A DNA stretch of 41,399 bases from an uncultured Victivallales bacterium (lineage in GTDB: Bacteria > Verrucomicrobiota > Kiritimatiellia > JAQICX01): NCBI GenBank assembly GCA_964441455.1, contig CAYTUX010000069.1, positions 1 through 41,399 on the forward strand, in the 5' to 3' direction. Shown here one piece after another: positions 6,109-33,505 of the stretch; within the stretch, counting starts at the first letter, position 1; each line of letters opens with the position of its first letter. The position numbers and the translations under genes were made by a program. The notes below the pieces were generated by a model. The model did no database searches. It was not told the origin of the DNA and saw only the letters and a list, made by a program, of their open reading frames with translations.

Positions 6109-8664
6109 TCATTTTGTCTTATATTCCCCTACCGATTCGGCAGCCATGCTCAATGTTGGTTCTTCGGCTGATTTATCTTCGCCCCAGACTTTGGCAATCC
6201 GGTCTTTTATCTTTTGCTCAAATATTTCTATTAGTTGTTTGTTTGCGTTTACAATTTCTTGTTCTTTTTCTATTTTAGCAACTATTTGTTTTTGTATTTC
6301 AATAGGAGGCAATGGAAATTTTATTTTAATGATAGCATTACCGTTAAATTGCGGTTGACCGCCTCCTGTCATTAACTTAGCCGCTTGACTAATATAATTG
6401 GAACTCTGAGCAAAAGCCCAATAATATTTTGGATATACCCTTTTTTTGTCGAAATTCAGACGAATAAGAAATGAAGCAAAAACGGCCGGATACGATTCTT
6501 TAAAAATCATAGTCTTTCCATATGTTGCCCCTGTTCTTGCAACTAAGATATCATCTTTACTAACTATACTTTTCTGTGCATCTAATGTTAAATCAATATA
6601 TCTAGCATTTTCTTTTATCAATTCGCCATCTACTCCAATATCTGTAATTCTAATAAAACGAGCATTGCCTTCGTCTTTAGCTTTTTCTGTAAATCCATAT
6701 TGTGGTTTTGCAACCTCACCCAACTCGACCATTTCCCAAGCGGGGTCAATGTCTATTTTGGGTTTGTAGTTTTCAACTACCATTTTTGCCCCATCAATTA
6801 TTTTCTGGTAGCCTTCTATTTCAGCTACTATCTCCTCTTGAACCGATAATGGAGGTAGCGGAATTTTAACCCTTTTAACTAACTCAATATTTAAATTCTT
6901 AACTACCCCCCCCGTTGCAGACTGAGCAAATTGGTCTTTAACAAATTGAGAAGAAAGAATATTAAAAACATAATTCTTGTTTAAATTATTTTTGAGTTGT
7001 TTAAAAACTAACCAACCATCATGAATTGCACCAGTAATATTTACAATATAAGGACGTCCAAAACTCATTGAGTTTGAAAGTATGAAATCTCCAGGTTCAA
7101 CTAATCTTGATTTTTTCAAGCCTTCTGGTCTTATTTTTTGTTTAGTTGAATTTACAAACTTAGCCCCCTCTTGAACATCACCAATTTTAATCCAATTTAT
7201 GCCATTGACATCATCCGTTATATAATCTTGAATTGGTCTTGGTGAACCTCCTCGCTTAATATCAAATAATTCATTAAGTGTACACAAATCAAATTCTGTT
7301 TGCCCTAAAATTGTTTCTTTGTACCTCTCGCCGCTCAAATTATAATCGCCATTTTTTGCAATCTTTGATTTCAGTACAGCATGAGCCATTTCGACTTCGC
7401 TCAAAGCCCCTGCTTTAAATTGTTTCAATAAGTCAATTGCTTCTTCCAGCTGTCCACCTTTAATAATATTTCGTTGAGCACCCAGATTGAATCCATCGTT
7501 ATCAACTTTTACAAATAGTATCTCATTACTTGTTTTGGCAAATTGCCTATCCATCAGCAAAATAGAAGTCTTTACTCCACTATATGGATTAAATACTCCG
7601 GCGGGCAAACTCACTACGGCATACAGATGATTCTCAACCAGCATTTTACGAAGTTCTTTGTAGGATTTACCACTTTGGAAAATTACTCCCTCGGGAACAA
7701 TTATACCTGCTCTACCGGTTGGATTAAGATGTTCGGCAATGTAGTCAACAAACAAAACCTCTGAACGATTTGACTTTACTGTAAATTGTGAGTGAGGTCG
7801 AATCCCCCCTTTTGGACTCATAAATGGAGGGTTGGCAAGGATAACATCAAACCTGTCATCCCAACGATCTTCACTTGATAAAGAATCATATTCATAGATA
7901 TGCGGAGATGTGAACCCATGCAGATATAAATTGACCAGACTCATACGAACCATATCGGGAGATATATCATAGCCGATAATGTTTTTTATCAGCTTCTTTC
8001 TCTCATCAGGAGTCAGGTTGTTGTTTTTCTCTTTGATATGTTTAAAGGCAGATATAAGAAAACCGGCTGTTCCACATGCTGGATCAAGTATTGTATCCGA
8101 TTTATCCGGATCTACAGCTTTGACAAGAAAATCTATTATGTGTCGTGGAGTTCTGAATTGCCCGGCATCGCCTTGTGAACCCATGATAGAAAGCAGATAT
8201 TCAAATGCATCTCCAAGTTTTTCACTATGGGTGTATTCAAACCTTCCAATCTCTTTTAGAAACATTCGGAGCGTTTCCGGATCGCGATATGGCAGATATG
8301 CATTTTTAAAGATATCTCTGAACAGTTGAGGTATGTTAGGATTTTTCTCCATATTCTCTATGGCTTCAGAATACAATCGGAGCAGGTCATTTGCTGAGAC
8401 CTGTGGACTCGTAAGGTTATCCCAGCTATATTTTTCAAATTCAACAGTTATCTCTTCTTCAGGATTGGCTGGATCTTTGATTTTGTAATCTGAGAAAAAC
8501 TTTGCTTTTCCGCCAAGTTCAATGGATTCTTTATCCATATCATCCATAAATTTATATATCAATGCAATTGTAATCTGCTCAATCTGCGATTTCGGATCCG
8601 GCAACTTCCCTACTAAGATATCCCGGCAATCATCTATTCTTCTCTTTGTCTGTGTATCTAACAT
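6109..8664 (-). CDS. hsdM: Type I restriction-modification fused methyltransferase-specificity subunit (HsdM N-terminal about 480 aa plus HsdS with two target-recognition domains)
   Basis: N6-adenine MTase motifs DPACGTAGFL (motif I) and LANPPFMS (motif IV). These are followed by two TRD-plus-conserved-helix units: LPPLSVQEEIVAEIEGYQKII and LPPIEIQKQIVAKIEKEQEIV. AGGA RBS precedes the ATG at 8664 (the ORF track extends to 8712). Confidence 0.85.
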   Translation of the reverse strand: MLDTQTKRRIDDCRDILVGKLPDPKSQIEQITIALIYKFMDDMDKESIELGGKAKFFSDYKIKDPANPEEEITVEFEKYSWDNLTSPQVSANDLLRLYSEAIENMEKNPNIPQLFRDIFKNAYLPYRDPETLRMFLKEIGRFEYTHSEKLGDAFEYLLSIMGSQGDAGQFRTPRHIIDFLVKAVDPDKSDTILDPACGTAGFLISAFKHIKEKNNNLTPDERKKLIKNIIGYDISPDMVRMSLVNLYLHGFTSPHIYEYDSLSSEDRWDDRFDVILANPPFMSPKGGIRPHSQFTVKSNRSEVLFVDYIAEHLNPTGRAGIIVPEGVIFQSGKSYKELRKMLVENHLYAVVSLPAGVFNPYSGVKTSILLMDRQFAKTSNEILFVKVDNDGFNLGAQRNIIKGGQLEEAIDLLKQFKAGALSEVEMAHAVLKSKIAKNGDYNLSGERYKETILGQTEFDLCTLNELFDIKRGGSPRPIQDYITDDVNGINWIKIGDVQEGAKFVNSTKQKIRPEGLKKSRLVEPGDFILSNSMSFGRPYIVNITGAIHDGWLVFKQLKNNLNKNYVFNILSSQFVKDQFAQSATGGVVKNLNIELVKRVKIPLPPLSVQEEIVAEIEGYQKIIDGAKMVVENYKPKIDIDPAWEMVELGEVAKPQYGFTEKAKDEGNARFIRITDIGVDGELIKENARYIDLTLDAQKSIVSKDDILVARTGATYGKTMIFKESYPAVFASFLIRLNFDKKRVYPKYYWAFAQSSNYISQAAKLMTGGGQPQFNGNAIIKIKFPLPPIEIQKQIVAKIEKEQEIVNANKQLIEIFEQKIKDRIAKVWGEDKSAEEPTLSMAAESVGEYKTK

Positions 8665-8802: not shown

Positions 8803-9402
8803 TTATTTAAAAAATTTGTCTTTATTCCAATTTTGTTGATTCTCATTAATATATTTTCTGATATTTTCAAATGATTTATCATTGCGGATTATATGATCGT
8901 GAAAACGGGGTTGCCAGGCAAAATCGGCACGGATTTGACGGGCATTTTTGGTAACACCAATTTTAAACCCACGAATAATGGATGCCAGATTTTTTGATTG
9001 CCCCCCAAATTGATTTATATGATCATTGGTCGTCGCCGCGGTCGTCGTCGCGGTCGTCATCGTAGAGACGCAATGCTTTGCGTCTCTTTTATTATATTCA
9101 TTTTCACCAATTATGACAATGGCATGAAAATGATTTGGCATTATTACATATTCATCCATCATTAAATTCATATCTGGTCGCATTTCAAATGTTTTTAACC
9201 ATTCGGTTTTCACGATTTCCCCAATGGCTGACAATTTCATTTTATATGGAGACGCAAAGCATTGCGTCTCTACGATTTGTCCAAAATAACATACCCTGTT
9301 TTTGGTGCAAATGGTAACAAAATATGTGGCATTCCAACCATAATCCCAATTTTGCAATCGGGTGGATGAAATACGGTATTTGTTTTGAAATTTATCTAAC
9401 AT
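8803..9402 (-). CDS. IS200/IS605-type Y1 (HUH) transposase homolog of the REP-associated (RAYT-like) kind
   Basis: HUH motif MPNHFHAIV and C-terminal WQPRFHDHIIRNDKSFENIRKYINEN. Size 199 aa. Two palindromic REP-like units and a Thr/Ala-rich run lie in-frame. Confidence 0.8.
   Translation of the reverse strand: MLDKFQNKYRISSTRLQNWDYGWNATYFVTICTKNRVCYFGQIVETQCFASPYKMKLSAIGEIVKTEWLKTFEMRPDMNLMMDEYVIMPNHFHAIVIIGENEYNKRDAKHCVSTMTTATTTAATTNDHINQFGGQSKNLASIIRGFKIGVTKNARQIRADFAWQPRFHDHIIRNDKSFENIRKYINENQQNWNKDKFFK
9064..9087. repeat. REP-like palindrome AGAGACGCAATGCTTTGCGTCTCT inside the RAYT-like ORF
   Basis: Stem of 9-10 bp. Translates in-frame as RDAKHCVST. Confidence 0.8.
9249..9270. repeat. 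REP-like palindrome GAGACGCAAAGCATTGCGTCTC inside the RAYT-like ORF
   Basis: Identical to the copy at 8748-8769. Translates in-frame as ETQCFASP. Confidence 0.8.
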
Positions 9403-24797: not shown

Positions 24798-24833
24798 AAA
24801 ATATTTTCTCTTTAAATCAATCCAGCCCCGTCC

Positions 24834-24853
24834 GGGCGGCATTCTTGCCGCCC
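24834..24853 (-). repeat. GC hairpin H1 (GGGCGGCA-TTCT-TGCCGCCC), 36 nt upstream of the lpxB ATG
   Basis: Perfect 8-bp stem. Member of a four-copy family located in 5' leaders of minus-strand genes. Confidence 0.7.
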
Positions 24854-24871
24854 TTCCCAATTATAACTCTC

Positions 24872-25819: not shown

Positions 25820-25860
25820 AATTATTTATTCCTTCTTTTAAAATCAATCATTCTACGTAC

Positions 25861-25880
25861 GGGCGGCAATCTTGCCGCTC
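25861..25880 (-). repeat. GC hairpin H2 (GGGCGGCA-ATCT-TGCCGCTC), 41 nt upstream of the oxidoreductase ATG
   Basis: 8-bp stem with one position that pairs only as G-U (G-T). Preceded by CGTAC as in copies H3 and H4. Confidence 0.7.
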
Positions 25881-25950
25881 CTACAGAGGGCGAGGCAGTA
25901 ACCCCTACAAAGCTCTCCCCACTATTTTCTAATTTACAAATTTTCGAATT

Positions 25951-26071
25951 CCTCACTTTTCCCATCAGATCCAAAGTGCTCCTCCCCTGTTTAGGGGAGG
26001 TGGCCACGCTGTCATTTGCTTTTAAACAAAAAGCAAATGACGGCGTGGACGGAGGGGTAATCCTGCCATTT
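25951..26071. repeat. Core repeat copy A (long form; middle hairpin extended by about 33 nt)
   Basis: The 54-nt block CTTTTCCCATCAGATCCAAAGTGCTCCTCCCCTGTTTAGGGGAGGTGGC is identical to copies B-D. It is followed by CACGC-TGTCATTTGC...GCAAATGACG-GCGTG, then GACGGAGGGGTAATCCTGCCATTT. Confidence 0.8.
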
Positions 26072-26103
26072 ACGCATTCTCGAATTTTCGCACTTTCGAA
26101 TTT
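26072..26103. repeat. 8-nt-period A/T-rich satellite (TTTACGCA/TTCTCGAA/TTTTCGCA/CTTTCGAA)
   Basis: CpG at 26073, 26081, 26089 and 26097, an exact 8-nt spacing. Confidence 0.75.
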
Positions 26104-26629
26104 ACATCAAAACCTTATCCAATATTTTCGCCAACTCATCAATGCTCCCAACACAATAATCAGCTTCACTATCTTTTATATCTTTTGAAACCAATATTGT
26201 CCTGCAACCGGCAGCCTTACCTGTAAGAACATCGCCCTCTCTATCCCCTACCATAAATGAATTTCTTAAATCAATATCGTGTTTTTCGGCAGCTGCAAAA
26301 ATCATACCGGGCAGAGGTTTTCTGCATTCACACTCATCACCTGCCAGATGAGGACAGTAATACATGTCCAGAAGCTCACAGCCAAATTCTTCTTTCAGCT
26401 TCTTTTGAAGCCTATCATGCATTTTTTCAAGATCAGCTTTCTCAACAATTCCTTTGCCTACACACTGCTGATTACTTATCATTATTCCAACATAACCATG
26501 AGCAATTGCAACCTTTAAGCTTTGTACAAATCCATCCTGAATATGAAAATCTTCCCACTTTTCAACATATCCCGGACCGGGTGACCTGTTAATTATTCCA
26601 TCCCTGTCAAAAAAAACACACTTTTTCAT
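26102..26629 (-). CDS. gmhB: D-glycero-D-manno-heptose 1,7-bisphosphate phosphatase-type HAD-IIIA hydrolase
   Basis: FFDRDGIIN nucleophile motif; Zn-binding-type CPHLAGDECECRKP; MVGDREGD. 175 aa. Confidence 0.85.
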   Translation of the reverse strand: MKKCVFFDRDGIINRSPGPGYVEKWEDFHIQDGFVQSLKVAIAHGYVGIMISNQQCVGKGIVEKADLEKMHDRLQKKLKEEFGCELLDMYYCPHLAGDECECRKPLPGMIFAAAEKHDIDLRNSFMVGDREGDVLTGKAAGCRTILVSKDIKDSEADYCVGSIDELAKILDKVLM

Positions 26630-26652
26630 TATTATTTACTTGCTTTCCGTAC

Positions 26653-26673
26653 GGGCGGGCCTTGGGTCCGCCC
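26653..26673 (-). repeat. GC hairpin H3 (GGGCGG...CCGCCC variant), 23 nt upstream of the gmhB ATG
   Basis: CGTAC-GGGCGGGCCTTGGGTCCGCCC-CTCCTAC. Same flanks as H2 but a divergent loop. Confidence 0.6.
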
Positions 26674-26760
26674 CTCCTACTGGGAACGCCAAGCTTGAAG
26701 GAAAAACTTGGCAAAACTCCTCCCCACCTAATCTTCCAATACGGAATTGACCCTTTCTTC

Positions 26761-26828
26761 AATTTTCACATTTTCGAATTTACGCATTCTCGAATTTTCA
26801 CATTTTCGAATTTACGAATTTTCGAATT
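26761..26828. repeat. 8-nt-period satellite array (about 8.5 units, consensus TTTTCGAA), abutting core copy B
   Basis: CpG (or CpA) at 26775, 26783, 26791, 26799 (CA), 26807, 26815 and 26823. Confidence 0.8.
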
Positions 26829-26917
26829 CCTCACTTTTCCCATCAGATCCAAAGTGCTCCTCCCCTGTTTAGGGGAGGTGGCACGCGAAGCGTGACGGAG
26901 GGGTAATCCTGCCATTT
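26829..26917. repeat. Core repeat copy B (short form; middle hairpin CACGC-GAA-GCGTG)
   Basis: Identical to copy A apart from the middle hairpin insert. Confidence 0.8.
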
Positions 26918-26953
26918 ACAGCTTCTTTTTTTACCCTTTCCCCTTCTTACCAT

Positions 26954-26977
26954 GCGTCTGGCGTCATGAGTCATGCG
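26954..26977. repeat. GCGTCTGGCGTCATGAGTCATGCG unit (inverted partner at 29897-29918)
   Basis: Its reverse complement matches 29897-29918 over 22 nt. Confidence 0.7.
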
Positions 26978-27048
26978 CACTCTGCAACCTCGCTCGACCA
27001 ACAATAAATACCGGCAGAGGCTTTCCACGCCAATCTAACTGTATTGCG

Positions 27049-27073
27049 TCTAAGTCTCTAACGGTCTAACTAA
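27049..27073. repeat. Three to four 8-nt-period TCTAA units just downstream of the scpB stop
   Basis: TCTAA starts at 27049, 27057 and 27065, plus CTAA at 27070. Confidence 0.6.
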
Positions 27074-27075
27074 TT

Positions 27076-27765
27076 TCACAAATTAAAATTCGTCTGCCTT
27101 GGAGCACCATCTTCTCTTTCCTGACGAGCTAACTCCTCGTGAACCTCTGAAAGCGGCTGTTCCTCTGCTTCCTGTTCATGAGCAGCCTGAGCAAGTAAAG
27201 CAGGCTTTATAGAATCAAGATCGCCCAAATCTTTAAGACCAAAATGATTCAAAAATTCTTTCGTTGTTCCATATAAAAAAGGTCTTCCGGGCAGTTCGCT
27301 TCTTCCCGCAATCTTCACAAGATGCAGTTCCATAAGATTTTTAACAATATTACTGCTGTTTACCCCTCGAACTGCCTCTATTTCAGCCTTTGTAACCGGC
27401 TGGCGATATGCAATGACGGATAAAGTCTCAAGTGCGGGCATAGACAACCTGGCAGGCTTGCCTATTTCAAGATAGTGCCGGAGCCAACGACCGCAATTTG
27501 CTGCTGTCTGAAACTTATATCCCTCGGTCGTCTCAACAATAACAAAACCATTGGGGCGATTATTAATATCTTTAACTAAATCCTCAACAGCATTATTGAC
27601 ATCTTTTTTGCTGACTTTTCCATACTCCTTGGCATAGTCTTCACTGGTATCCGCAACCTCTTTTATACACTTCAATATCTCATTGATACTGATAGACCTG
27701 GTTGAACCAAAAATCATGGCTCCAACAATCTCTCTTAAATCCGGTAATTTCTTTATCTTTGACAT
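27076..27765 (-). CDS. scpB: SMC-Scp complex subunit ScpB
   Basis: Tandem winged-helix pattern ...TLSVIAYRQPVTKAEIEAVRGVNSSNIVKNLMELHLVKIAGRSELPGRPFLYGTTKEFLNHFGL. Follows scpA. Confidence 0.9.
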   Translation of the reverse strand: MSKIKKLPDLREIVGAMIFGSTRSISINEILKCIKEVADTSEDYAKEYGKVSKKDVNNAVEDLVKDINNRPNGFVIVETTEGYKFQTAANCGRWLRHYLEIGKPARLSMPALETLSVIAYRQPVTKAEIEAVRGVNSSNIVKNLMELHLVKIAGRSELPGRPFLYGTTKEFLNHFGLKDLGDLDSIKPALLAQAAHEQEAEEQPLSEVHEELARQEREDGAPRQTNFNL

Positions 27766-27794
27766 ATAAACAATCCTTGTTCTCGTAAAATCCT

Positions 27795-28604
27795 TTAAAG
27801 CAATGACGAGATCTCTTCTTTGCTCTCCAATTCCAAAAATTCTTCTTCCGGTGCATCATCTGATGAAATCATAATATCACTAAATTGTCCATCCTGATAT
27901 ATTGTTATCTTCTTGAGCTTTATAAGTTCAAGCAATGCCAGAAATGTACAGACAACTTCGTGCTTTGTCGACTTCTTCGTAAATAAACTGCTGAACTGAA
28001 CTGACCTTTTTTTTCTTAAAACTCTAACAAGTTCATCAATTTTCTCTGCAACTGTAAACTGATCTGAAAAAATATCCCCGACAACATCTTTTTTAGCACG
28101 CTTCAAAACTCTGTTAAAAGCTGATATCAAATCATATAAATTAACATCTTCAAGCTCTATTCCATCATCACTGTCATCCAATATGGTAAGATCCTGACCA
28201 ATCTCAAAAATATTCTCCTGCTCAAGCTCCTGAACATGCAGTTTTGATGCAATGTCTTTAAACTTCTTATATTCAACAAGCTGTTTAACAAGATCCCATC
28301 GCGGATCTTCTTCGTCATCTTCAAGTTCAGGGCGATCCTCTACCGGCAGCAGCATTCTGCTCTTTATCATCATCAAAGTGGCTGCCATGACCAGAAACTC
28401 ACCGGCAATATTTAAATCCAGCATACGCATAAAATCTAAATATTCCATATACTGCTTGTTGATTTTTTCAATTGGTATATCATATATATCAATCTCCTCT
28501 TTTTTTATCAAGTATAACAATAAATCAAGAGGTCCTTCAAAAACTTCAAGCTCAATTTTGTAATCTGTTTTATCAGCCATTTTTTTATCCAACAAAAAAT
28601 TCAT
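27795..28604 (-). CDS. scpA: Segregation and condensation protein A (kleisin)
   Basis: FEGPLDLLLYLIKKEEIDIYDIPI N-terminal signature. 269 aa. The ATG at 28580 is an alternative start. Confidence 0.9.
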   Translation of the reverse strand: MNFLLDKKMADKTDYKIELEVFEGPLDLLLYLIKKEEIDIYDIPIEKINKQYMEYLDFMRMLDLNIAGEFLVMAATLMMIKSRMLLPVEDRPELEDDEEDPRWDLVKQLVEYKKFKDIASKLHVQELEQENIFEIGQDLTILDDSDDGIELEDVNLYDLISAFNRVLKRAKKDVVGDIFSDQFTVAEKIDELVRVLRKKRSVQFSSLFTKKSTKHEVVCTFLALLELIKLKKITIYQDGQFSDIMISSDDAPEEEFLELESKEEISSLL

Positions 28605-28676
28605 TCTTTTGGGCGGGATGCGTCTCCCCCCTACATTTCGCCCGCGCCAGCTCGTACGGTCGAAAAATCTTTTGCC

Positions 28677-29636
28677 CTACAGTCCCACCGCAGCCTTTGC
28701 CGCATCAATTGTCTTGTCAGAAACCGCTCTTGCTTTTTTTGCTCCCTCTGCAAGAACATCCTCAACATAATCAAGATCATGCACCAATGCTTCACGTCTC
28801 TCTCTAAATGGTTCAAGATATTCCCATAAGTCTTCAAAAAGCTGTTTTTTTGCATGCCCATATCCATAACCACCCTTGCGAAGATTCTCCGCCATCTCAG
28901 ACACCTTTTCTTCTCCTGCAAAAAGTTTATAAATCTGATAAACATTGCAAGTTTCAGGATCCTTAGGATCATCCAGTTCTTTAGAGTCAGTAATTATCTT
29001 CATAATTCTCTTCTTTGTTGCCTTCTTGCCGTCAAACAACAAAATATGATTGTCATAACTTTTCGACATCTTCTGCCCGTCAATTCCCGGAACGACAGCA
29101 ACTGTATCCTGAATAGATGCCTCCGGTAATGTGAAAATCTCACCATATTCATTGTTGAATTTAATTGCAATATCTCTTGTAACTTCCAAATGCTGTTTCT
29201 GATCTCGACCAACAGGAACAATGTTTGACTGATATGCCAAAATATCTGCTGCCATCAAAACAGGATAACTGAACAAAGCATGACTTGCTGCAATACCCTT
29301 GGCAATTTTGTCTTTGTATGAATGGCAACGTTCAAGTAACCCGAGAGGTGTAACTGTCGATAACATCCATGTCAACTCCAACAATCTTGGTATATCACTC
29401 TGCCTGAAAAATGTTGTTTTAGCAGGATCAAGACCTAACGCCAAAAAGTCCAGTGCGACATCAAGTGTGTTCTCTCTTAAAAATTCAGGATCCTTTGATG
29501 ATGTCAGTGCATGATAGTTCGCAATAAACAAAAAGGCTTCACCCTTTTCCTGTAACTCCAATGACGGCTGCATCATTCCGAAATAATTTCCTAAATGCAA
29601 TTTACCCGAAGGTTGTATGCCCGATAATATTCTCAT
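28677..29636 (-). CDS. trpS: Tryptophan--tRNA ligase
   Basis: MRILSGIQPSGKLHLGNYFG (HIGH-type region) and KMSKS. 319 aa. Confidence 0.97.
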   Translation of the reverse strand: MRILSGIQPSGKLHLGNYFGMMQPSLELQEKGEAFLFIANYHALTSSKDPEFLRENTLDVALDFLALGLDPAKTTFFRQSDIPRLLELTWMLSTVTPLGLLERCHSYKDKIAKGIAASHALFSYPVLMAADILAYQSNIVPVGRDQKQHLEVTRDIAIKFNNEYGEIFTLPEASIQDTVAVVPGIDGQKMSKSYDNHILLFDGKKATKKRIMKIITDSKELDDPKDPETCNVYQIYKLFAGEEKVSEMAENLRKGGYGYGHAKKQLFEDLWEYLEPFRERREALVHDLDYVEDVLAEGAKKARAVSDKTIDAAKAAVGL

Positions 29637-29674
29637 CTATTTATTCCTCTATTATATTCTAAATTTTTTCGTAC

Positions 29675-29694
29675 GGGCGGCATTCTTGCCGCCC
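29675..29694 (-). repeat. GC hairpin H4 (GGGCGGCA-TTCT-TGCCGCCC), 38 nt upstream of the trpS ATG
   Basis: Identical to H1 in stem and loop. Preceded by CGTAC. Confidence 0.7.
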
Positions 29695-29896
29695 CTTCTG
29701 CAATTTTCGCTGCAATACTTCATATTGCCTCGTATATTTTCTTCATTTCATTACGAAATGCTCTGCCGAGAGCAAGAAAATTTTTATTTATTTATTGACC
29801 CAGGGCGTTGCCCTGGGCTAGTATATTAAGGGCTTTCAGCCCTTGCGGACGCCGGGGACATATTAGCTCCTGCCCATCAAACATTATCTTTTTTGA

Positions 29897-29918
29897 CGCA
29901 TGACTCATGACGCCAGAC
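29897..29918. repeat. CGCATGACTCATGACGCCAGAC unit (inverted partner of 26954-26977)
   Basis: 22-nt reverse-complement match. Confidence 0.7.
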
Positions 29919-29966
29919 ACATGACAAACCAAGATGCCGATGGTAGCATCGGTGCTCCAAAAATTA

Positions 29967-30050
29967 CTTTTCCCATCAGATCCAAAGTGCTCCTCCCCTG
30001 TTTAGGGGAGGTGGCACGCGCAGCGTGACGGAGGGGTAATCCTGCCATTT
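29967..30050. repeat. Core repeat copy C (short form; middle hairpin CACGC-GCA-GCGTG)
   Basis: Same 54-nt 5' block and same 3' block as copies A and B. The loop triplet differs. Confidence 0.8.
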
Positions 30051-30097
30051 TCGCATTCTCGAATTTTCGCATTTACGCATTTGCAAATTTTCAAATT
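30051..30097. repeat. 8-nt-period satellite linking core copies C and D
   Basis: CpG or CpA at 30052, 30060, 30068, 30076, 30084 and 30092. Confidence 0.75.
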
Positions 30098-30180
30098 CCT
30101 CACTTTTCCCATCAGATCCAAAGTGCTCCTCCCCTGTTTAGGGGAGGTGGCCGAGCCTGCGAGGACGGTGGGGTAATCCT
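30098..30180. repeat. Core repeat copy D (divergent 3' half: CGAGCCTGCGAG, GACGGTGGGG)
   Basis: The 5' 54-nt block is identical. The middle segment is not a clean hairpin, and the 3' block has one substitution and lacks the GCCATTT tail. Confidence 0.75.
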
Positions 30181-30402
30181 TTATTCAAAATTGGACGTTA
30201 GATGTTCGACGTTCTTAATCCATTTTTATTTTTCTTTGTGCTCTTCGTGCCTTCGTGCGAGACATTTTTTCTCTTTTTTCTTTTAATAATCTGCGTTCAT
30301 CTGCGAAGAACCGACCACCGGGAGATAGGCTGGAGCCTGCGACAGCAATGAGTGCAGCGAATGGCCTATCTGCGGATAAATTCTTTTGCATTCAATCGCC
30401 AC

Positions 30403-33199: not shown

Positions 33200-33505
33200 G
33201 GTTCTTCGTCATTTATTGTGGGTATCTTATTAAATCCCGCAGGGATGTCATCTTAGTAGCCATGGGTTTTAACCCATGGTAGAGACATCAAAGCAATATG
33301 AACCCCATAGGGGTGGCACCTGAGTTAAGAAATTAAGATGTCATCCCTACAGGATTCTATGTTTTGGGTTATTATATACCTCTAGGTTAAAACCTAGGGC
33401 TACCCGGATGTCGCCCCAGCTACTAAATATTTTGTTTTTATTCAACATAAAAATGTTTTGTTGTTTAGTAGCTGGGCTTTTACCCACAATAATTGCTGAA
33501 GAACC
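33200..33505. mobile_element. MITE-like 306-bp element E2 (homolog of E1)
   Basis: Left end is GGTTCTTCGTCATTTATTGTGGGTA. The reverse complement of the right end is GGTTCTTCAGCAATTATTGTGGGTA. Interior hairpins align with E1 and carry compensatory changes. Confidence 0.65.

Follow-up and report, generated by a model that had tools for sequence, protein, structure and literature searches.

Among the intergenic repeats described in bacteria, the closest to the element analysed here is that of Escherichia coli known as BoxC, PIT (potential intrastrand triplex) and TMECO, or as class II of the ITxF repeats (Hoyne et al. 2000; PMC4666352). Its design is that of a class II purine-motif triplex, in which one strand carries a 5′ pyrimidine block, then a purine block, then an antiparallel reverse-Hoogsteen block, giving G.G-C, A.A-T and T.A-T triplets (Holder et al. 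2015, PMC4666352). We analysed a stretch of 41,399 nucleotides (nt) from an uncultured Victivallales bacterium, i.e., contig CAYTUX010000069.1 of assembly GCA_964441455.1, hereafter the window, in which a GC-rich element is found in four copies between positions 25951 and 30180. These four copies are probably a dispersed, multi-copy intergenic DNA repeat that presents the same block order on one strand, with a hairpin inserted in the second loop of its class II intrastrand triplex design.

The TMECO consensus is CCCTCNCCC N3-6 GGGNGAGGG N3 GGGNGAGGG (PMC4666352). Published definitions set the stem at 6-15 nt (ITxF) or above 7 nt (Hoyne), the first loop at 1-6 nt, and the second loop at 1-6 nt (ITxF), 0-10 nt (Hoyne), or 3 nt (TMECO) (PMC4666352). 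TMECO forms a stable triplex in vitro, which was unseen by dimethyl sulfate (DMS) footprinting in vivo (PMC4666352). It has neither promoter nor terminator activity and no strand bias, and is often arranged in inverted pairs made of two types (PMC4666352). Its folds halt polymerases in vitro, and small deletions and rearrangements concentrate at its loci, which are unusually variable between strains (PMC4666352). According to Holder et al., who cite earlier work, the purine-motif triplex does not form in RNA, while pyrimidine-type triplexes can (PMC4666352). These repeats have been known for 25 years, without an established function or a proof that the triplex plays a role in vivo.

Four Copies with a Mirrored Third Block

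The four copies are direct repeats on the plus strand, detected by repeat finding and blastn. Their parts are as follows.

Copy A, 25951-26071, plus strand: 5′ block with stem CACTTT/AAAGTG; tail AATCCTGCCATTT
Copy A core, plus strand: pyrimidine block 25981-25988 (CCTCCCCT), loop 25989-25992, purine block 25993-26000 (AGGGGAGG)
Copy A, plus strand: inserted hairpin 26004-26048 (20 base pairs (bp), one T.G), third strand 26051-26058 (GGAGGGGT)
Copy B, 26829-26917, plus strand: pyrimidine block 26859-26866, loop GTTT, purine block 26871-26878, linker TGG
Copy B, plus strand: hairpin CACGC-GAA-GCGTG 26882-26894, linker AC, third strand 26897-26904 (GGAGGGGT)
Copy C, 29962-30050, plus strand: pyrimidine block 29992-29999, purine block 30004-30011, hairpin CACGC-GCA-GCGTG 30015-30027, third strand 30030-30037
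Copy D, 30098-30180, plus strand: pyrimidine block 30128-30135, purine block 30140-30147, CGAG..CGAG middle hairpin, third strand 30167-30174 (GGTGGGGT)

The intervals returned by repeat finding for this family (D1) are 25955-26048, 26833-26926, 29966-30059 and 30102-30195. All four copies lie in spacers of a minus-strand cluster that comprises valS, trpS, scpA, scpB, gmhB, a Gfo/Idh-type oxidoreductase gene and lpxB. The same copies are present in six other assemblies of the population (blastn). This recurrence, together with the raised depth over the element (see below), indicates that they are not due to chance.

A first reading, made from the sequence alone, had described four same-orientation copies in the spacers of this cluster, which repeat finding, blastn and the gene map bear out. 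It had also proposed an invariant block of 54 nt. This holds for copies A, B and D, which have 54-55 nt in common (CCTCACTTTT...), but copy C departs at the four preceding bases (AATT), and the stretch identical in all four copies is of 50 nt (ACTTTTCCCATCAGATCCAAAGTGCTCCTCCCCTGTTTAGGGGAGGTGGC). Likewise, the 3′ end that it regarded as conserved (GACGGAGGGGTAATCCTGCCATTT) is identical in copies A-C but not in copy D, which has GACGGTGGGGTAATCCTTTATT, i.e., GGTGGGG followed by divergence. The 8-bp hairpin with a GTTT loop was correctly recognized, and corresponds to the pyrimidine block, the first loop (4 nt) and the purine block of the core (8-nt stem). The variable middle was also rightly described: the stem CACGC/GCGTG carries the loop GAA in copy B and GCA in copy C, and folding extends it to 20 bp, including one T.G pair, in copy A.

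The feature missing from that reading is the relation between the purine strand and the block that follows the middle hairpin. On the plus strand, the core consists of the pyrimidine block CCTCCCCT, a 4-nt loop, the complementary purine block AGGGGAGG, TG(G), a variable hairpin, AC, and finally GGAGGGGT. This last block has no complement nearby and instead mirrors the purine strand AGGGGAGG. The second loop, which separates both, is of 18-19 nt in copies B, C and D and of 50 nt in copy A. It is mostly occupied by the hairpin, leaving about 3-5 bases unpaired. In each of the four copies, all eight positions form allowed triplets (8/8). Indeed, the A-to-T change in the third strand of copy D, whose 3′ tail is truncated, is permitted in the purine motif as T.A-T.

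The Third Block Follows the Purine Strand

The mirror relation was tested on 461 pyrimidine/purine hairpins of the fetched loci (cited below by L numbers), all lying outside the search pattern. Downstream of 154 of the 461 hairpins, the purine strand recurs as a perfect mirror copy, while a direct copy is found downstream of 57, a mirror copy upstream of 38 and a direct copy upstream of 31. Moreover, the type of hairpin and the type of third strand match. Hairpin AAGGGGGC is associated with the third strand GGGGGA(A/T) in 15/33 cases, AAGGGAGC with GAGGGA(A/T) in 10/22, and AGGGGAGC with GAGGGG(A/T) in 10/21, each palindromic hairpin being counted on both strands, so that the ceiling is one half; the off-diagonal combinations do not exceed 3 each.

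The same rule was observed in the 145 distinct units aligned with a covariance model (described below). The triplets were allowed in 95.2% of the 1135 cells, against 83.7 ± 0.6% (maximum 85.5%) with shuffled third strands, and reading the third block in the direct-repeat register fits 50% of the cells. Where the duplex pair is changed from the commonest one (62 cells), the third base follows in 61. At the stem positions located outside the 7-nt detection core, G is opposite G in 44/62 and 14/17 cells, and A is opposite T or A in 160/209 cells, with T opposite A in 139 of these 209. Within the main stem, the inner pairs are nearly all C-G or U-A, the exceptions being one G-C cell (columns 13/31) and two U-G wobbles; hence, the purine stays on the 3′ strand. 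Mirror copies, matching of types and a fixed purine strand are what a purine-motif triplex requires, and are explained neither by a plain palindrome nor by an ordinary RNA helix. A third-strand base that changes with the duplex pair is comparative evidence for selection acting on a three-stranded fold, or on a reader of mirror symmetry.

The Hairpin Inserted in the Second Loop

Of 239 distinct regions between the second and third blocks, 128 contain a perfectly paired stem of 6 bp or more, against 32 of 1195 shuffles. The hairpin is usually bordered by TG(G) on the left and by (A)C or T on the right, leaving about three unpaired bases, i.e., the same number as in the 3-nt loop of TMECO. Its pairing is under constraint. 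Indeed, changes on both sides of the stem were observed in 6/7 pairs among 19 equal-length units and in 7/7 pairs among the 145 units, the covariation that the sequence-only reading had proposed to look for, and the stem draws freely on C-G, G-C, A-U and U-A pairs. Its mismatches (11 G.T against 4 A.C) give no significant strand signal. The multiple structured copies are in line with the miniature element that the same reading had kept as an option.

Two forms of the middle hairpin recur in distant hosts. The form in which CGAG is opposite CGAG (tandem G.A pairs), at 30148-30166 of the window, is also found in L087, L098, L126, L010 (5048-5094) and L011 (6264-6316). It is common to Kiritimatiellae, Negativicutes and Clostridia, as is the CACG(G)C-GAA-G(C)CGTG form.

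A Family Found in Many Phyla

A loose pattern, consisting of CCTCCCCT, a loop of 4-5 nt, AGGGGAGG, 16-46 nt and GGAGGGG, and in which no hairpin is demanded, recovered more than 119 loci among the matches listed, in many phyla. The hosts among these matches include Clostridia, Negativicutes (Phascolarctobacterium), Omnitrophota and Patescibacteria, as well as Alpha-, Beta- and Gammaproteobacteria, Planctomycetota, Nitrospirota, Cyanobacteria and Bacteroidota. In nearly all listed matches, the second and third blocks are separated by a hairpin, unrelated in sequence. In Clostridia, the units are inverted doublets of two unit types, as they are on Sphingomonas plasmids, and inverted doublets make up most of the units detected in the wider family.

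We built a covariance model, R1, from 19 Firmicutes units only (H1, TG, H2, C, GGAGGGGT), in which the columns of the third block are left unpaired. The model detected 205 units, distributed over 89 loci, and 145 distinct units were aligned with it. Applied to the window, it recovered copy B with 43 bits (E 6e-11), copy C with 41.7, copy D with 32.8 and copy A with 23-38, the lower score of the latter being due to its 33-nt insertion; with the filters off, nothing was found in the window beyond the four copies. The window carries the Kiritimatiellae version of the family, with a lineage-specific 5′ block and satellites of 8-nt period. The 5′ block is considered as lineage-specific because an exact 20-mer taken from it has no match in 185,579 species genomes, and only one chance coding match (L001) in the Joint Genome Institute (JGI) metagenome contigs. 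In the literature that we searched, no description of a hairpin-carrying variant was found, and a search by sequence strings returned nothing relevant.

Two observations on other members of the family can be added. Units 81-88% like copy B are carried by unannotated human faecal contigs named "Bacteriophage sp." (MT835749, MT835801, MT839043, MT836701 and MT836522). In L101, at about 7400-7470 on the minus strand, the third-strand block is repeated four times in tandem (AAGACGGAGGGGTTGC, period 16) straight after a unit, which looks like local slippage.

Copy Number and Turnover between Close Relatives

We aligned on copy B the Logan contigs of two runs that contain the organism; the summed depth includes other organisms and is not a copy number. 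This depth is 15-17 over the flanking genes, 235-720 over the lineage-specific 5′ block, about 7300 over the main hairpin, about 1100 over the middle hairpin and about 700 over the 3′ block, and it is back to 17 at 26932. It amounts, over the element, to 15-450x that of the flanking genes. This profile shows that the specific part exists in tens of copies, and that the core is far more widespread.

The element also varies in presence and number between relatives, as observed in their syntenic loci, which were taken from members of the same 90% ScpB cluster. In L011 (GCA_036681025.1), which is 96% identical in scpB and in the oxidoreductase gene, both the gmhB-oxidoreductase and the scpB-gmhB spacers are devoid of the element, and a single copy, of opposite orientation, lies at another site. 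In L010 (86-89% identical), the orthologous spacers are short, and four copies that have diverged occupy different spacers; L008 (84%) has only one copy, which is decayed. Even within the population, the number of copies in the gmhB-oxidoreductase spacer varies, with one in the window against two in L002-L007, and the length of the spacer between copies C and D differs by 40 nt. These one- and two-copy forms, and the 40-nt difference, may be alleles or assembly collapses.

Resemblance to Class II Triplex Repeats and Its Limits

The likeness to BoxC/PIT/TMECO goes beyond the block order. Both are G/C-rich, intergenic and multi-copy, with a stem of 8-9 nt; both lack strand bias and often form inverted pairs of two unit types; and in both, numbers differ greatly between close strains and loci are variable. 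The 8-nt stem and the 4-nt first loop of the window core fall within the published ranges for class II triplex repeats. Its multi-copy and intergenic nature, its lack of strand bias and its variability between strains are those of class II repeats too, as judged from the depth, from the equal orientations (9:9) in the wider family and from the empty orthologous spacers. On the other hand, the window copies are single and direct, and carry a lineage-specific 5′ block and 8-nt satellites, unlike BoxC/PIT/TMECO. The hosts also differ from those of the E. coli repeats, and include Kiritimatiellae, many Clostridia, Omnitrophota, Patescibacteria and Alphaproteobacteria. The element is therefore not a TMECO/BoxC in the strict sense, since it departs from it in consensus and in the length of the second loop, but the design is the same.

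A further comparison is offered by BOX of Streptococcus pneumoniae (boxA-boxB(n)-boxC), which also has a variable middle between conserved ends and lies in spacers of housekeeping operons. However, BOX presents no sequence likeness to the window element and lacks the triplet design.

Several points weigh against the class II triplex interpretation. The second loop of the window and of the family (17-50 nt, with a variable hairpin of 5-20 bp) lies outside the published limits of 1-6 or 0-10 nt, and the blocks of the window, CCTCCCCT / AGGGGAGG / GGAGGGGT, differ from those of TMECO, CCCTCNCCC / GGGNGAGGG / GGGNGAGGG. Many of the units share ancestry, so the independent triplet changes are perhaps 6-8, coming from a handful of unit types, and the covariation was read from a model-fitted alignment. 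Every copy of the window and its relatives that lies between co-directional genes has its G-rich strand as template (5-6 linked cases), which may reflect an orientation effect within this lineage. Finally, the folding of the window sequence into a triplex is predicted, by analogy with TMECO, whose own triplex escaped DMS footprinting in vivo (PMC4666352).

Alternative Explanations

The best of the alternatives, which we nevertheless hold to be improbable, is a palindrome of the repetitive extragenic palindromic (REP)/REPIN type or of the miniature inverted-repeat transposable element (MITE) type, moved by a transposase. The third block would then be kept for doublet pairing or for recognition by a protein, and the triplex potential would be incidental. 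REP, BIME and REPIN, which are associated with REP-associated tyrosine transposases (RAYT), are indeed short structured intergenic repeats that form doublets and mosaics and turn over rapidly between strains, and our element shares with them an intergenic position, multiple copies, inverted doublets (in other phyla) and a place in a modular mosaic with other repeats. In the doublets, GGAGGGGTTGT pairs with ACAATCCCTC. Moreover, the window contains a RAYT-like gene (8803-9402), and Y1_Tnp-like genes are found in relatives. However, this open reading frame is flanked by a different palindrome, GAGACGCAAAGCATTGCGTCTC, and no RAYT is flanked by our units, whose core in addition lacks a GTAG-type head. 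The third block mirrors the purine strand of its own unit even where the doublet stem thereby acquires a G.T pair or a mismatch, and the main stem is strictly homopyrimidine on one side and homopurine on the other, for which there would be no reason in a plain palindrome. Neither terminal inverted repeats nor target duplications can be seen at the window copies; the empty spacers of relatives, which are otherwise unalignable, give no borders of insertion.

Less probable still, and in our view very improbable, is a structured RNA, either cis-regulatory or small, towards which the sequence-only reading had leaned. The strong covariation of the middle hairpin would suit it, each strand folds better than its shuffled versions (z -3.0 to -8.8), and in this lineage the copies located between co-directional genes have one common orientation. 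The C-rich strand, which is the sense strand of the genes, could even form a pyrimidine-motif triple helix (C+.G-C, U.A-U), a type that is possible in RNA (PMC4666352). Against this, Rfam, at gathering and permissive thresholds, yielded nothing for the element, whether in the window or in 18 related loci; the first reading had matched it to no named RNA family either. Among the single units of the wider family located between co-directional genes, 9 are in sense and 9 in antisense, the very distribution that this reading had taken in advance as contrary to an RNA, and most units are inverted doublets. The orthologous spacers of a strain as close as L011 (96% identical) are without the element, and no RNA-seq run containing the locus was found in our search. 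The 3′ block obeys a mirror rule rather than a Watson-Crick one. The frequent T opposite A (139/209 inner cells, and copy D) suits a purine motif on the G-rich strand, and would put a disallowed A in the third strand of a pyrimidine motif. Six consecutive C+ triplets are, moreover, unfavourable at neutral or alkaline pH.

A G-quadruplex or another structure of the G-rich strand, or a cluster of binding sites for a nucleoid or Shine-Dalgarno-like (GGAGG) factor, is scarcely credible: the plus strand does carry G runs (GGGG, GG, GG, GG, GGGG) and two GGAGG strings, but a quadruplex needs neither the conserved pyrimidine block nor the position-by-position mirror covariation, and no start codon lies at a fixed distance downstream of GGAGG. 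Two narrower candidates were rejected, i.e., a ribosome-binding (Shine-Dalgarno) role of GGAGG, for this same absence of a start codon at a fixed distance, and a Watson-Crick pseudoknot between GGAGGGG and CCTCCCC, which are mirror images rather than complements.

The element thus appears to be a DNA-level, unstable or mobile spacer repeat, and its reading as a structured-RNA gene is not supported, because Rfam is empty at the element, the orientations are balanced (9:9), and the T frequently facing A within the third block points to a purine motif said not to form in RNA. GC-rich blocks of this kind in AT-rich spacers should not be annotated as riboswitches or small RNAs.

A Possible Mode of Action and a Candidate Enzyme

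How could a class II repeat with a hairpin in its second loop act in the cell? Once replication, repair or supercoiling has unwound the DNA, the G-rich strand (plus in the window) would fold into a hairpin and a third strand, in which the third block GGAGGGGT would occupy the major groove in antiparallel orientation, giving G.G-C, A.A-T and T.A-T triplets. The inserted hairpin would close the second loop and act as a clamp. Such a fold could stall polymerases, leading to slippage, deletion and recombination, as was proposed for the E. coli TMECO. It would account for the inflated, hypervariable spacers and for the one- and two-copy recombination forms, and perhaps also be a source of the flanking short-period arrays, although their association with the units is weak family-wide (6.4% vs. 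3.5%).

Among the neighbours of the 119 listed loci, no common protein family was found, and only DUF559 recurs, at 4 of the 119 loci. Small genes for DUF559 (Vsr-like endonuclease) proteins are located 24-170 nt from units in L034 (71-454), L099 (6371-6730) and L101 (6999-7361), the last of these genes being flanked by two units. In E. coli MG1655 (L131, 1706-1740 and 1908-2261), TMECO no. 9 lies 168 nt past the stop codon of ycjD, annotated as a DUF559 protein. No DUF559 gene is present in the window or in the loci of the relatives. The triplet covariation could reflect selection that maintains an intrastrand DNA triplex in living cells across many phyla, the units being the substrates of a dedicated enzyme, with the DUF559 nuclease as a candidate, and the two forming, by analogy with REP and RAYT, a new structure-specific system of mobility or genome plasticity; we regard this broader proposal as doubtful.

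The triplex design itself is far more widespread than could be seen by the published searches, in which the loop was limited to 6 or 10 nt, since the hairpin sits precisely in the second loop. The defined natural variants, together with a candidate partner gene, make the question of DNA triplexes in living bacteria approachable.

Satellites and Neighbouring Repeat Modules

The copies are embedded in a mosaic of other repeats. Short-period arrays adjoin all of them, and further modules occupy the same spacers.

26761-26828, no strand: satellite of 8-nt period (AATTTTCG-like), directly next to the 5′ block of copy B (Tandem Repeats Finder and repeat finding)
25924-25950, 26072-26103 and 30046-30097: shorter AATTTTCG-like arrays adjoining copies A, C and D
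29936-29965: hairpin module GCCGATGGnAnCATCGGCnCTCCAAAAATT (GCCGATGG..CATCGG), a different module, which precedes the 5′ block of copy C
29799-29843, plus strand: two-hairpin module CCCAGGGCGTTGCCCTGGG..GGGCTTTCAGCCC
24807-24855, 25834-25882, 26640-26690, 28610-28660 and 29648-29696, minus strand: GC hairpins (GTAG)GAGCGGCAAGATTGCCGCC-CGTACG
26951-26977 and 29897-29923: 27-nt inverted arms

The satellite at 26761-26828 has a depth of 2-7x that of a single copy. Unrelated loci of Firmicutes (L023, L027/L080, L100, L104 and L121) also have comparable arrays of 7-8-nt period next to their units. Over the whole family, such satellites lie beside 6.4% of the units against 3.5% of control intervals, the controls not being matched for intergenic position, and a general company of 7-8-nt satellites with the units is only weakly supported.

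The module GCCGATGGnAnCATCGGCnCTCCAAAAATT also precedes several other copies on other contigs of runs X1 and X4. The two-hairpin module reaches 36.2 bits against Acido-Lenti-1 of Rfam (RF01687, gathering score 37), the sole near match in the Rfam searches. It is antisense to the genes, a similar module is found in L010 at about 800-860, and it behaves as a further repeat module of the spacer mosaic. The five minus-strand GC hairpins sit 25-45 nt upstream of five start codons, and three of the five have a GTAG head, like classical REPs; the one located before the oxidoreductase gene is retained in L011, although the remaining spacer differs.

On a larger scale, the GC skew of the window tracks the gene strand and so gives no replication direction. 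At about 33300, the genes pass from the minus to the plus strand and the skew changes sign at a MITE-like element (33200-33505), which may be a mere border between divergent operons. Finally, the 27-nt inverted arms, which are 96% complementary, enclose scpB-scpA-trpS, and the right arm is itself an array of 7-nt period (TGACGCA).

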